Notes: generated by a model not told the origin, from the letters alone. Positions 3,133 to 10,367 are shown, counted from the whole stretch's first letter. The stretch is DNA of 62,021 bases, filler included, from Globobulimina sp. (GCA_003354225.1; 12 parts of 12 records of this genome joined end to end with filler, not necessarily neighbours in it); one strand, 5' to 3'. Numbers and translations are program-made.

Positions 3133-3173
3133 TCTTGAAAGTTTTTTGACAACTAATCGTGACTCCAATTGCA

Positions 3174-5083
3174 ATGGGAAAGTGTTGCTCAACTTCGTGG
3201 TACCAATCAATGACAGCAGAGTACCTTAAACATGAAACAGTGAATGAATGCGTAAGAAGTCAATGCAATTGTCAACAATTAAAAGTTGGAGATTCGCTGC
3301 AACTCACAGCATCTCATGATAACAATATTATTTTCGAAGGAAGATTATTATATATCGAAGCCATCTCATCCTATTCATGTCTTGCAGCAAATGATTGGTC
3401 CTTTGTCGACGATGCTAAGTCTAAATTCATTGGACGTAGATTGATAATAACAAGAGATATACCAAATGTTGCTGCATTATCATGTAACATAAAATATGGC
3501 GACGACACTTTTGATTTAAGCCATGTGCCTGATCAGTATCGATATAAAATTGACGAATATGTGCGTTTATCTATGCACATCAATGCGTGCAATAATGCTC
3601 AAAGAATTGGAGCATACTCTAAAAAAAACAAACATTACAGAAAAAGTGAGAATGCGTTATTATCAAAATCAATAAAATTGGAATTCATCCATTCATGTAA
3701 CAAAGCAACAAAAACGAATGGGAATATTCGGATTTATGCTAAAAACAAATTATTTTATATCAAACCATCAGTCAACACCGCAGATAACGAAGAGCTTAAA
3801 TTAATGGACGAAGAACCAATGTGTCTTAATCGTACTGTTTTGACTGAATTTTTTTATGTCAAGCCAACGAAAAACCGATTCTGTGATGGATTTTCCAATA
3901 CTGTTTTCTCACTAAAACATTGTATCCGCAAAACTGAGCATGTGCATCCAAGAATTGTCCATACTAAACGTGCGTTTATTCATTTCATTGTAAACAGTTC
4001 CATTTCCGTTGCATTCCCTCAATTTACAGATGCTATTAACAAGGAAACAACGCATAGACAATGGTTATTCAATGCATATTGGACATGTTTTCCAACACTG
4101 TACGCTCAGAATATATTTATATGTGAAACCAGATTTATATGTCAAAATATTATTAAATTTTCACCATTATATCACAATTCCAATCTTAATGACAGTATAT
4201 CCAACACAATTCCTCATCAACTCTTTTTATTCGAATGCGGAGCGATAAAAAACATTTGTAACGCATATAATATGCCATATGAGTATCCATACGAATTATG
4301 TCCATCTTATCTTAATCAGTATAAAAATTCAACACGAAGTGATCCAAAAATGTCCGTATTTATCAAAGAATGTCCATTTTATATTGCAAAATATAATGAA
4401 AAATGGGATTTAGGCATTATACCATCATTGAAACATGATTATGTCAACGATTTATGCAAAGCATGGAGTCAACTCCGAGCAGTCAATCTTTTCCGCAATG
4501 CCAAAGAATTTGACTTGAATGAGTATATAACGTATTATCAGACCAATATGTTTGACAAAGATCCATATTATAATTTTTTCAAAGAAACTGGAATGATCCA
4601 TTCACACTCAATGGTTGAAATATTTTGTTCAATCAATTATGGTGAATCGTATGCCGTATTATATCAAAAACACTTATTAGAAAATGAAAAACGAATACAG
4701 ACCGCAGCAAAGCAACGGAAGTTCGCAGCTGGAGATGCTGCAAAAGCTCGACAACAAGAAATAGAGAGAAGCACTCCACTGCAAATTGAGCAGTTCATGA
4801 ATATGGAGAGATTTACATCGCATAAAATCGCTTTGGAGTATTGTAACAAATGTTGGTTTCCTAAATTTAGGCTTTATAAAAGCAGACAAAGGACGGTAAT
4901 GGAGATCGTGGAACGCATATTTAAGGACAGAAAATCAGTGCAACGCAAAACAATGGATGACATTTGTTGTGATTTGCAGTTTGATGATCTTTATCGACCA
5001 TTTGCGTATATGTCTGTGGGTTGGAAGGTGCTGGCAAAGATTAAGGACAATGATTTTAATAAGCGGTATTTGGAAGAGTTAGC
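3174..5083 (+). CDS. Hypothetical protein with N-terminal MGKCC acylation motif, 3' truncated
   Basis: Uninterrupted ORF of more than 630 codons running into the gap. No domain recognised. Confidence 0.65.
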
Positions 5084-5184
5084 ANNNNNNNNNNNNNNNN
5101 NNNNNNNNNNNNNNNNNNNNNNNNNNNNTTAATTAATTAANNNNNNNNNNNNNNNNNNNNNNNNNNNNNNNNNNNNNNNNNNNN
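5084..5184. other. Artificial contig-join spacer (N run, TTAATTAATTAA, N run); first of 11
   Basis: Equivalent spacers at about 10268, 15450, 20631, 25812, 30992, 36170, 41347, 46519, 51688 and 56855. Contig lengths fall steadily from 5083 to 5067. Confidence 0.97.
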
Positions 5185-5449
5185 TTGAAAGCATATTGCC
5201 AATAAATAAATGGGATCACTAAATAAAGCAGGTATACACAAATTAAACTGTGTTTCAACTTGGTATTAAATTGACGGACCATCATCTGGGAACCAGAGGT
5301 GCTTTCATAAAAAGTGTAAAATATCTCATATTTTACTCAAAGGGGGGTCTGACTTTAGTCAAAGAGTAGTTTTTGTTTGTGATGATTACAAGAGTGCAAG
5401 ACTACACTGTTGAAAAGGTACAATATAATATTGGGAATTTGCGGTGTTA

Positions 5450-6761
5450 TTAACGACAATTATATTGGCAAACTCTTGTGGTTCTTTTTTTATAAACTAC
5501 ATTCATAAAACATTCCCTACATTGTACCGCATCATAAGGTCTCAACGATACAATAACCCCACATTCAGCACATATATATTGTGCCGGTTTTTGTTGTTGT
5601 TCACGTTCAATAATTAATGGCTCATTATCTTTAATCCTTAATTTAAATAAAGGTACATTTTCTTCTAACTGTCGTTCATTTGATAATAACTTATCATTTT
5701 TCATAAATGGTTTCCTTGTTATCCGTGCATATTGCTCTTGTATTTCAACAATAGTCTGATTGTCCATTACCTCAATCTCTTGGCATGCCTGGTCGTCATT
5801 CATTTGATTCATATCCATATTGGAATTGGCATTATTTATTTCAGAATCATACACTAACACTGAATATTTGCCAACATTATAATTTAAGACGCATTGATTC
5901 TCTATTTTTTCGTCATAAACCGTCGAATGTAGATCTAAAACCTCATTGTTCAACGACAAGGTGGCACTCTCATGCTTCTCTCGCCGCGATGACTGCAAAT
6001 ACACATTCAACACATCGTCAATACTCCAAAACTCGCATACTAAGATATCAGTGGATAGCTCGCAAAGTTGATCAATTATTTGCACGCAAATACGTGATAT
6101 TAATGTATGCCCATTATCGACGATCTGGTATTCCCTCAATGTTTTATCATTTTGTAATTCCAAGCCGTCTTTGCTTAATTGATCTAAACGAACATTTCTA
6201 TCCTTTTCAACCTGTTCTTTTATGCGTGCAATGGTAAAATCTTCGGCCACACGAATATCTTCACAGAAATCTGTAATGTATACAAAAGTGTATGTCAATG
6301 GTGAATGTAGTTCTTTTTTTTTACAAACCTGTCCCATCCATTATTTTAACAAAAAAACATTGCCATCGAATTAATAATTTCTTATGGTTGGCAATCATCG
6401 CATCGTCGTCTTCTTGGTATATATCCTCGGTCAAAGGGTCTACAATAAAATGTGAGGATGTTATTTCAATGGAGTTGTTTCCCTGTCCAGCGCCAATATT
6501 TTTCTCTTCTTCGCGTTGTAATAAATAACGTTTAATATCACCAAATGTCCGTATTTCATCGGTTAATGGGACACGAAATGACTGTCCTTCACATTCAATA
6601 ATGACCCAATTCTCTGACTCCACAATTTCTGCATCGGCATCGGCATCTACATTGACATCACCATCATCATCTAATACATTCTCGGTAAACCCATTATTCT
6701 CAATGTCATCATCATCATCATCTGATTCATCTGTAACTGGTGTACCACCTGCACCGTACAT
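5450..6761 (-). CDS. Tandem ubiquitin-like domain protein fused to a C-terminal RPB12/POLR2K (RPABC4)-like zinc ribbon; 2 exons, 417 aa
   Basis: A 58-nt GT-AG intron (6328-6271) joins the two ORFs in frame. UBL-like segments include TIARIKEQVEK...KDGLELQNDKTLREYQI. The C-terminus YICAECGVIVSLRPYDAVQCRECFMNVVYKKRTTRVCQYNCR has the C-x2-C-x13-C-x2-C, YKKRT and terminal Arg pattern of RPB12. Confidence 0.8.
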
Positions 6762-6910
6762 TATATATCAAGACTATTGTTCGGGAAAACTGTATAAATT
6801 AACCGGACTTAAGTTAGAATGGCTCTCAATATCACAGCCTAAAACCGAAACTATCCAAACCAAAACAGCACAAACCAAAACAGCGCAAACAGCATCACCT
6901 AGTATCCAAC

Positions 6911-9406
6911 ATGAAAAGTGTGGATTTCAAATTGCATATAGCTGTTGATTTTGGGACAGACGGATGTGGTACGTATAAATGAATAATAACTGCATCTTGC
7001 ATTTTACTACGTATACGCATTACACAATTAACTACAGCACTAGCATTTGCATACAAAGATAAAGTGACGGTTTACAATAAATGGCGCGCTCAACAGGTTC
7101 ACTCAAGTTCGAGAGCATCAACAACAACAAAGACAAAGACACAATTGATATTGAATGAAAACAATGAAGTTACATGTTTTGGAAATGCTGCCAAATTCAC
7201 GTTAATTAGTATTGACACTTATGTGCATGGCAAAATCACACAACTACAATTTGTCATTTCTATATTGTTAGATATTTCAATCTCGAACAACCTGAACAAG
7301 ACAGGAAAAAATTCTTTGAGAGATTTAAAATGGCGTTATACGGTACGTATTTTATTGTTATTCAACAAAACAAACTATTATCATCATTCTACAAAATTAA
7401 ATAGAAACACATTTAGGTCAATTCAGTGATATTATTGAAGCGGATGAAGAGAAGAAACGATCGGATGTTAATACTGCAAAATATTTATATGATTCCAAAG
7501 GCGAAGCAATCGAACCTAAAATTGTATTTATTGCAGCTTTTAGAATGTTGCAACGAAAGGCAAAAAAATATATTCCAGAAAGAATAACAAATGATGATAT
7601 TAAAGATGAAGAGATTCAGTTTTTTTATTTTATCCTTAAATTTTTCGGTGGTAAATATTTTACAAACAGAAATAAATATATTTAGATGGATCGTGACAGT
7701 CCCCGCCATTTGGAGTGAAAAGGCTAAAAATAAAATGAGAGACTGGATGATTGAGGCTACATTAATCGATCCACATGTAATTGATCAGTGTGTAATCGTC
7801 TTTGAGCCGGATTGCGCTTCGTTATCGATGCAAAAACAATATTTTAGAGATATTACTCGAAAATCGAAACCAAAGAAATCACATTCGTCTAAATCGTCAA
7901 TGAATGTTATATTCAACCCATGTGATGATATGGAGAGTGACGAAGATGAAAAAAGTTTTAAATTAGCTAAAAAAAAGATAAATTTTGAAAAAAATGATAA
8001 ATATATTTTGATTGATGCTGGAGGAGGTACTATGTCACGTCTATATATATATATATAGTATAATATATTGGATACTACATAAGGTACTGTCGACATTGCA
8101 TGTCATAAAATTATGGGAAATGGATGCGTTGAAGAGATTATATATCCAACAGGGGATAAGTGGGGTTCCTGCTATATTGATGATTTGTATATTACGTTAT
8201 TACAGGAAATATTTACTGAACAATGTATTGTTGACTATCAACATAAAGCACCTGCAGGTTTTGTTGAGGTTATGGCCAATTTTAAAACAGCCAAAGAAAC
8301 GTTTTCACAAAAAAGAGCAAAAACACATCGAGTGCACTTACCAGAAGATTTTGTTCGCTTTTTAACACAAGAATGTGAGAAGCAAAATACTGATTTGGCC
8401 ACAAAAATCGATGCATTTGGTGCATCAAAGCAATTAAAGTTTAGATACGTTTGTTTTCATAATTAAACTGCTTGCGTTGTTATGTTTGTTATGTAATAGC
8501 TATTTTCGAGATTTATTCTGGAATGAAAGAGAAAAAGAGGAAAAGAATTATGATGAATGTGATAAAAGCGTTTGTGTATTGAAACTTATAAAGGAAAGAA
8601 TGAATGAAAATGATAAGAAGGATGACTCCGACTCCGAGGAAGAACAATTAGAGAGTGACTCTGAGGAAGAAAATGTTAAATGGATAGAATATATTGAATT
8701 GGATGTGAGAATTTGGAAATGTTTGTTTGATTCAAAGATAAATCCAATAATAGCACATGTCGAGAAATTGTTGGAAGTGGAAGCATTGAGAGACTGTAGA
8801 TTCTTAGGATTAGTTGGCGGCTTTTCATGTTCAAAATATTTTCAATACAGAATGCAAAAAACGTTTGGAGAATATGGTTTTTATCAAATGACAGTTGTTA
8901 TTCCCCGCAATCCAATGTTGACTGTGGTTGAAGGAGCTGCTTTGATGGCAATCACACAATTTACTTATATTCGAGCACGAAAATTAAAATATACATATGG
9001 CATCAAATGTGCTCGTAGCAAGGAACAAGCCGAAAAAAAAGGCATATCAAATGATTATATCAATAATCAGGATAATATAGCTACTGATGGATTGGTTGAA
9101 GGGTGTTTTGACATCGTTGCAATTAAAAATGAGCGTGTTTCCATTGGAACGGTAAAAAAATCCATTCTTTATAGAAGAGCTATGACAACAAAGACCTCCT
9201 CTATTCCCATATTAAAAAGCGATGAACAGAATCCAAAAGTTGCGAGTGAAGGAGAAGAATTAGCAGTTTTACATGTATCTCATACCAATTCAAAAAGAGA
9301 AACTGTGACAGAGTTTCATTTTTATGACACAATATTCAAAGTATATTCATATCCGAAATCAAATCCAAATGAAAAGCAACAAGTTCATATCAAATACGTA
9401 GAATGA
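6911..9406 (+). CDS. HSPA12-like atypical Hsp70 (multi-exon; start approximate)
   Basis: Motifs spread over exons: IAVDFGTDG, WIVTVPAIWSEKAKNKMRDW, FEPDCASL, YILIDAGGGT(V)DIACH, GDKWGSCYIDD, LVGGFSCSKYFQ, PRNPMLTVVEGA. Confidence 0.85.
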
Positions 9407-9505
9407 TATGTTTGCGTGTACTTTTTTGTTATTTTAAACTACTATTTTTCCATATATAATAACCTAGAAATAAAAAAACTGAATTTAAAAATCATCCATT
9501 CTGCC

Positions 9506-10267
9506 ATGGGAAACGTCGTTGATCCTAGCAATTTCAAAGCTGAAAACAAATTAATCCAAACCAATCTTTCTCATGATCAGATCCCAACTCTACTACAACA
9601 ACGGTCTGTTGATTTCAAAATTCATATAGCCATTGACTTTGGAACTGATGGATGTGGTATGATGTGTCTATAATTACCAAACATGCAATAGCAAGACTTT
9701 GGAACATATATAGCAATCGCATATTATTATAACAACAAAGTAACAATATATAATAAATGGATGACCAAATCAAGACAACGTACAACCAAGGTCAAAACAC
9801 AAATATTATTAAATGGCAATGATGAATTGGCTGCATTTGGTGATAATGCTAAAATAATGTTTAGTATATCGGGACACATATTTTTTAGTATTTCTTCTGT
9901 AAATACACGTGCACAGATATTAAAATTTAAGTGGTGACGAAAAGAGAACATGGAAATTCTTTGATAGATTCAAAATGTCACTTTATGGTTTGTATCATTT
10001 CTTACATACATTTAATTGCTACACTTAGTGTCCTTATATTTTGCAGAAGTTGCCATCCCATTGCAACCAAAACAAACTGTACATAACCAAAACAAATCGA
10101 GCAAAGTTGCAAAGAAAATTAATGTGCCAAACTTTATTTGTGGTTTGTTCAATTCATATGTCATATGTTTCAAACTAAAAAATGATTGATTTTATATGTA
10201 GTCAAAGCACCAGCTGATCATCAACCAGATATTGAGAATGAGTGTAAGACAAAAACAGTTGTTGGAG
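9506..10267 (+). CDS. Second HSPA12-like Hsp70, tandem paralog, 3' truncated
   Basis: MGNVVD...VDFKIHIAIDFGTDGC, with an intron at the same position as in the upstream copy and a similar following exon (KVTIYNKW...KTQILLN). Confidence 0.8.
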
Positions 10268-10367
10268 NNNNNNNNNNNNNNNNNNNNNNNNNNNNNNNNN
10301 NNNNNNNNNNNTTAATTAATTAANNNNNNNNNNNNNNNNNNNNNNNNNNNNNNNNNNNNNNNNNNNN

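Follow-up and report, generated by a model that had tools for sequence, protein, structure and literature searches.

RNA polymerases I, II and III have five subunits in common, of which RPB12 (also RPABC4, POLR2K or Rpc10, and RpoP or Rpo12 in archaea) is one. Wherever RPB12 has been studied it is, to our knowledge, a free peptide of 5–8 kDa. The canonical subunit consists of 46–76 aa. Here we describe a gene of Globobulimina sp. (GCA_003354225.1), found on the minus strand of a 62,021-nucleotide stretch of DNA (the window), that encodes an RPB12-like domain at the end of a 417-aa protein. The likeness to RPB12 is found in the C-terminal ~50 residues, which include the zinc ribbon, the YKKRT motif and the terminal Arg. 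What sets the protein apart is the ~370 extra residues on the N-terminal side, which are predicted to fold into four ubiquitin-like (UBL) domains preceded by an acidic head.

A ubiquitin fold placed N-terminal to a very small, basic, zinc-binding subunit in one chain is familiar from Ub-eL40 (UBA52), Ub-eS31 (RPS27A) and FUBI-eS30. These proteins carry one near-invariant ubiquitin or FUBI, which is cut off after a Gly-Gly. The Globobulimina fusion, in contrast, has four divergent UBLs, no Gly-Gly at the junction, and a polymerase rather than a ribosomal subunit as the partner. Consecutive beta-grasp domains are also known from linear polyubiquitin, ISG15, FAT10, the tandem UBL of OASL and the C-terminal UBLs of USP7. 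However, the domains are arranged differently (root-mean-square deviation (rmsd) of 13–18 Å over the whole array), the fusion lacks a conjugatable C-terminus, and none of those arrays is carried on a polymerase subunit.

Lineage-specific changes of ubiquitin-family genes have been described in Rhizaria as well. Chlorarachniophytes have fusions to actin, ribosomal P1 and other proteins, but with true ubiquitin. The sequence-only reading of the window, which preceded this analysis, had pointed to these fusions, in agreement with PMC6332867, where the ubiquitin fusions of Bigelowiella are catalogued; the main text of that paper contains neither the word 'polymerase' nor the Bigelowiella model 68195, though its supplements could list the gene. 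Passages of PMC12930898 regard insertions between the monomers of polyubiquitin as a character that unites Rhizaria. A search of the full-text literature on rhizarian, RPB12 and ubiquitin-like topics, with subscription-only papers outside its scope, returned no description of an RPB12-UBL fusion.

Gene model and domains of the fusion

The coding sequence of 1254 nt is split into two exons (Table 1) and runs from an ATG at 6761-6759, with an in-frame TGA (6770-6768) three codons 5' of it, to a TAA at 5452-5450. The sequence-only reading had proposed one spliced 417-aa frame at 5450-6761, and this stands as proposed. The other features that it listed, namely the acidic N-terminus, the QQQKP linker, a C-x2-C-x13-C-x2-C motif, YKKRT and a terminal Arg, can all be read directly in the translation. 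Across the splice junction (...KIMDGT-D-FCEDIRV), the alignment with transcript-derived homologues (IMDGTDFKEDIRV, IMDGMDFREDIRV) is free of gaps; reading through the intron leads to a stop after ...MDGTGL. Exon 2 forms an open stretch of 272 codons in DNA of ~32% G+C. This open length, the database matches reaching E = 1.6e-141 and the three Pfam cut-offs passed by the protein, as described below, indicate that the gene is more than a chance open frame.

Judged by its sequence, the C-terminus is a complete RPB12-type ribbon. The RPB12 region proper comprises aa 374-417 and contains a zinc ribbon from C378 to C398 (5572-5510; CAEC-x13-CREC), which is followed by the tail YKKRT...CQYNCR, and the protein ends with YKKRTTRVCQYNCR-COOH. 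In the profile hidden Markov model search that had been suggested as a check of this domain, the exon-2 protein scored 38.2 bits against PF03604 (Zn_ribbon_RPAB4; cut-off 24) with profile positions 1-32 of 32 covered. When the PDB was searched by sequence, the last 50 residues matched RPB12 (chain L) of plant, human, yeast and other polymerases, 12 distinct sequences in all, with E values between 1.3e-11 and 1.9e-4. The best of them, plant NRPB12 (8hil_L, E = 1.3e-11), was matched over residues 2-51 of 51, with 24 of the 50 positions identical by a manual count of the printed columns. The QQQKP 'linker' itself aligns with the N-terminal residues of this plant chain, and the tail of the fusion aligns through the last residue of 8hil_L, 28jc_L and 1i3q_L.

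The same holds for the comparison with free forms and with the family. The ribbon and tail are gap-free against 24 free RPB12 proteins and keep the pattern Y.C..CG..L..C..C..K.R...R; conservation of the four Cys columns is at least 85% across 54 rows, and the terminal Arg is found in 62 of 67 fusions and 23 of 24 free forms. A Pfam scan found PF03604 in 20 of 21 diverse family members. The tail of the fusions carries additional cysteines, at position -6 in 38 of 67 and at position -2 in 34 of 67, and neither is present in any of the 24 free forms. The tail thus differs systematically from that of free RPB12, and the two extra cysteines of the window protein (CQYNCR, 5453-5470) may form another metal or disulphide site, one that is particular to fused RPB12. 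With 417 aa and a ribbon that starts at residue 378, the protein lies well outside the size of a free-standing small subunit (~45-76 aa).

The part upstream of the ribbon is, according to structure models, made of four consecutive beta-grasp/UBL domains, in line with the approximately four that had been read from the sequence. The models were built with AlphaFold for two homologues, P0003 and P0037, which stand in for the spliced protein of the window. P0003, from a Bolivina argentea transcriptome, is 84% identical to the exon-2 protein of the window. Its model, with a mean predicted local distance difference test score (pLDDT) of 76.2 and a predicted template modelling score (pTM) of 0.61, is disordered at residues 1-75 and has beta-grasp units at residues 80-154, 157-223, 226-297 and 301-386, which are followed by the ribbon. 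The top PDB match of this model in Foldseek was linear tetra-ubiquitin (7yui_A, E = 1.3e-20, 329 columns, 15% identity), and further matches included di-ubiquitin, ISG15, FAT10, OASL and USP7. P0037, a distant member that is ~30% identical to the foraminiferan sequences, shows an equal domain plan (mean pLDDT 87.5, pTM 0.69). Its UBL3 and UBL4 matched ubiquitin-like domains in a search independent of Foldseek with Z scores of 12.6–13.8 and rmsds of 1.3–1.8 Å over 72-79 residues. In both models the linkers between the UBLs are just 2-3 residues long. The UBLs share 15-20% identity with ubiquitin chains in structural alignments and are therefore not near-identical to ubiquitin.

Sequence profiles recognize part of this array in the window protein itself. 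A check against the ubiquitin clan, which had also been called for, gave PF00240 (ubiquitin) at 33.3 bits against a cut-off of 25.4 in two stretches, the better one at exon-2 residues 5-56, and PF11976 (Rad60-SLD) at 24.6 bits against 23.8 at exon-2 residues 83-125. Exon 1, which holds UBL1, gave no Pfam match when searched alone. PF00240 was found in 17 of the 21 diverse family members. Five UBL positions (G180, D211, Y235, R241 and D314) are at least 85% conserved family-wide, indicating that the array is not merely a spacer. The last strand of UBL4 (LIIERE) continues into the RPB12 linker. At the other end of the protein, foraminiferan-type homologues have two head motifs in common, MYG..TPVTDESDD at the extreme start and GFTE[NT].LD (GFTEN.LDD in the window), which may be linear binding or phosphorylation motifs.

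Table 1. Features of the fusion gene in the window, with the support for each
Feature	Position	Strand	Support
Whole coding region, tetra-UBL-RPB12 fusion (2 exons and intron)	5450..6761	-	Homologues at E = 1.6e-141
Exon 1, 433 nt, ending in phase 1	6329..6761	-	N-terminus MYG..TPVTDESDD aligns with homologues
Intron, 58 nt, GT..AG (GTTTGT...TTACAG), inside UBL2	6271..6328	-	Junction alignment; stop on retention
Exon 2, 821 nt including TAA; rest of UBL2, UBL3, UBL4 and RPB12	5450..6270	-	One open exon
Acidic head, predicted to be disordered, aa 1-51	6609..6761	-	Homologue model residues 1-75 with pLDDT <50
UBL1 (predicted), aa 52-133	6363..6608	-	Beta-grasp in homologue models; without a Pfam match of its own
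UBL2 (predicted), aa 136-202, interrupted by the intron	6098..6356	-	Best-scoring Pfam ubiquitin stretch
UBL3 (predicted), aa 205-276; helix with family-wide conserved Y235 and R241	5876..6091	-	Rad60-SLD match; models
UBL4 (predicted), aa 280-366; low-complexity loop between the first two strands	5606..5866	-	Homologue models
QQQKP linker and complete RPB12/RPABC4 domain, aa 367-417	5453..5605	-	PF03604; 8hil_L; alignment with free RPB12

Relatives, distribution and possible duplication

The sequence-only reading had regarded the architecture as one not known from elsewhere. On this point it was mistaken, because the fusion belongs to a large family. A first database search returned 16 proteins with E values reaching 1.6e-141, full-length fusions among them. 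In a profile search of 1.84 billion cluster representatives, 754 matched at E ≤1e-3, 124 at E ≤1e-10 and 42 at E ≤1e-30. Architectures were counted in 150 listed representatives out of these 754 matches. At least 150 residues precede a C-terminal ribbon in 61 of the 150, which are therefore fusions of the type described here. Another 34 have fewer than 150 residues before the ribbon, and 24 of these, none longer than 120 aa, are free RPB12 proteins; the ribbon motif is followed by a long tail in 11. The remaining 44 are without the strict ribbon motif and include N-terminal fragments and giant poly-UBL proteins. The giants (P0058, P0100, P0103, P0106 and P0150; 1128-2495 aa) contain 12-25 ubiquitin-family stretches and no ribbon; they were drawn in by the UBL part of the profile and were rejected as relatives of the fusion.

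Organism names were available for 9 of the 30 clusters looked up, and all nine are rhizarian, which suggests that the fusion is restricted to Rhizaria. The named organisms are the foraminifera Bolivina argentea, Nonionella stella, Ammonia sp. and Rosalina sp. and the cercozoans Bigelowiella natans and Paulinella micropora; the lineage look-up covered four of these six species. The fusion architecture is conserved in both Foraminifera and Cercozoa. Among transcriptome-derived proteins (some from poly-A transcriptomes), Ammonia, Bolivina and Nonionella are represented by full-length fusions and Rosalina by an N-terminal fragment; Bigelowiella has a full-length fusion in a genome model with a transcript. 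Three metagenome proteins of the family already bear automatic labels such as 'RPABC4' or 'RPC12/RpoP'. A further profile search, made in a word-indexed database with a diverse alignment, gave 7 matches and no new organism names.

Two of the cercozoan sequences deviate at the C-terminus. The Bigelowiella natans protein (P0067, 433 aa) has both the UBL array and the RPB12 tail, but the fourth Cys of its ribbon is lost (...CC.NGH...), and PF03604 was not reached in it at E 0.01. The Paulinella micropora model (P0096, 497 aa) extends ~100 residues beyond the expected end of the RPB12 tail (...QQFD, then unrelated sequence), and it looks as if a terminal intron had been missed in the gene model.

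For a quick maximum-likelihood tree, 53 near-full-length members were used. Rows in which fewer than 230 residues precede the ribbon had been excluded, and Bigelowiella and the trimmed Paulinella model were put in by hand. The tree consists of two groups of 17 and 36 rows, each with a support of 96 in the Shimodaira–Hasegawa-like approximate likelihood-ratio test (SH-aLRT). All named foraminiferan sequences of the A type, to which the window protein is similar, and of the B type fall in the 17-row group, while the 36-row group contains Bigelowiella, Paulinella, a third Nonionella sequence and many others. The A type is sister to the B type (support 92). Because both are present in the Bolivina and in the Nonionella data sets, the tree suggests that the fusion was duplicated within foraminifera, with the qualification that these transcriptomes are field-derived and may contain mixed organisms. 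The classes are represented by P0003/P0022, P0024/P0170 and P0036, the third and divergent class being in the Nonionella set. Many branches are long, and the deep placements are therefore unsure.

Conservation is uneven along the protein. Identity to the window sequence in the RPB12 region is 91.7% in the closest clade (6 rows) and 55.6% over all 53 rows, making it the most conserved region of the fusion. The corresponding values are 76-80% and 30-32% for UBL2-4, and for UBL1 they are 66% in the closest clade (6 rows) and 23.6% family-wide (39 rows).

Fate of the UBL array and alternative explanations

We consider it probable that this gene encodes the rhizarian RPB12 with a permanent tetra-UBL appendage on the polymerase. 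The ribbon and the basic tail would insert into the polymerase core like canonical RPB12, and the ~40-kDa tetra-UBL arm would stay attached and project from the surface of the enzyme. The arm could remain attached because the N-terminus of RPB12 is variable in length and dispensable elsewhere. In solved RPB12 chains, the matched stretch is preceded by 1 to 31 residues. Passages of PMC2680338 report that the eukaryote-specific N-terminal 28 residues of yeast Rpb12 are dispensable whereas the C-terminal part is essential, that archaeal RpoP, which is without the eukaryotic N-terminal extension, replaces yeast Rpb12, and that a chimaera is functional as well when its N-terminal part is foreign. 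We favour docking or assembly as the role of the arm: it may be a fixed docking or assembly module that could recruit UBL-binding factors. Alternatively, the arm might aid the folding or delivery of the tiny zinc ribbon, as ubiquitin does for eL40 and eS31, but without being cut. The sequence-only reading had offered two interpretations, an uncleaved appendage on RNA polymerase and a specialised RPB12 paralogue that would link the polymerase to proteasome/p97-type factors, a link for or against which the present data do not speak. Its observation is confirmed here and its interpretation is partly supported.

The arm would be lost if the protein were a cleaved precursor, in which the UBL array acts as a chaperone in cis and is removed by a Gly-Gly-independent protease to free RPB12. 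The layout is analogous to that of known precursors, in which a small zinc-binding subunit of a large complex comes after one or more UBLs. In the protein atlas, exon 2 resembled clusters of Ub-eL40 and Ub-eS31 (scores of 0.77-0.82, which is below the trust level and makes them a lead only), and the ribbon region has a weak match to L40e (E 0.42). Against this, and as the sequence-only reading had noted for the window protein, no Gly-Gly precedes the ribbon. The sole Gly-Gly of this protein is at residues 5-6 and none is found at any domain boundary; among ribbon-bearing family rows, 52 of 53 have none in the 25 residues ahead of the ribbon. On this sequence evidence, the protein is unlikely to be processed in the manner of ubiquitin fusions. 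The inter-UBL linkers are also very short, and a disposable chaperone would not seem to need four domains that have conserved surface residues and persist in both Foraminifera and Cercozoa. We regard such a precursor as quite improbable. If the organism also had an ordinary free RPB12, the fusion could instead be a specialised paralogue, a UBL scaffold that serves a subset of polymerases or has departed from the polymerase altogether. The presence of at least two sister fusion classes in both the Bolivina and the Nonionella sets, besides the third divergent Nonionella sequence, would fit such a specialization, as would the degenerate ribbon of the Bigelowiella member and the tail cysteines that free forms lack. 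However, the RPB12 part is the region that changes least, it is full length and gap-free against the free forms, and nearly all fusions retain the terminal Arg. In addition, a query with the ribbon found no free foraminiferan RPB12 among short proteins, in a shared-word search that could easily miss one; all three short matches are 5'-truncated pieces of the fusion that start at an internal Met within UBL4. In the 62-kb window, tblastn found no second RPB12-like sequence (best other match, E 2.4). A specialised paralogue is an unlikely explanation in our judgement, though it deserves more weight than a processing scenario would.

A trivial explanation would be that the fusion is a gene-model or assembly chimaera of a UBL gene and a separate RPB12 gene. 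Joins do exist in the window, which concatenates 12 pieces of ~5.08 kb with spacers (N44 + TTAATTAATTAA + N44) at 5085-5184, 10268-10367 and so on every ~5181 nt. The gene, however, lies entirely within the single contig 5185-10267, and UBL2 through RPB12 are encoded by one uninterrupted exon. The sole intron is of the GT..AG type and its junction matches independent transcripts. The same architecture recurs in the 61 listed representatives, which come from many sources, and the whole fusion is present in related transcriptome-derived proteins, bearing out the claim that both parts belong to one molecule. An artefact is scarcely credible on this evidence, and we rejected it.

Several points weigh against a permanent arm on a general polymerase subunit. 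The degenerate fourth zinc ligand of the Bigelowiella member is odd for a sole essential subunit, and the paralogous fusion classes, judged from their sequences, may mean that some copies are specialised rather than general. A separate gene for free RPB12 may be present in this organism. The ribbon might also be made separately there, from an internal transcript start or by a protease that is not of the ubiquitin type; the nearest in-frame Met 5' of the ribbon is ~45 residues away and is not conserved in distant members. Finally, the structural support comes from models of homologues, and we infer the presence of the protein in the polymerase.

Genomic context and significance

Since the pieces of the window are joined by spacers, the context of the gene is meaningful within 5185-10267 only. 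A multi-exon series of open reading frames (ORFs) lies divergent from the fusion gene on the plus strand at 6909-9406, and a second copy starts at ~9600 and runs to 10267. Both copies open with a similar KxHIAxDFGTDGCG stretch, which we take to resemble the start of an actin/Hsp70-fold ATPase. In the preceding contig, an open frame of 645 codons (3150-5084, plus strand) reaches the contig end. A Pfam search at E 0.01 found no family in any of four pieces of these neighbouring ORFs, three from the divergent series and one from the preceding contig.

RPB12 and tandem UBL arrays are each well known, and our comparison suggests that what is new is the combination, a polymerase-subunit RPB12 with a tetra-UBL array. 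A conserved form that cannot be cleaved at a Gly-Gly would equip each nuclear polymerase of these organisms with a large module for protein interactions. It would represent a new coupling of the transcription machinery to assembly, quality-control or turnover factors. A bolder proposal, which we make tentatively and to which we give somewhat less than an even chance, is that the tetra-UBL-RPB12 protein is the only RPB12 in Rhizaria, such that all three nuclear polymerases carry a permanent four-domain UBL arm. The duplicated foraminiferan versions would then give different polymerases, or different states of them, different arms.

The fusion may also serve as a rare genomic character of Rhizaria, a supergroup whose unity was first argued from another oddity of a ubiquitin gene. 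If it is indeed the only rhizarian RPB12, it would join the polyubiquitin insertion as a second signature from the ubiquitin family that unites Foraminifera and Cercozoa.

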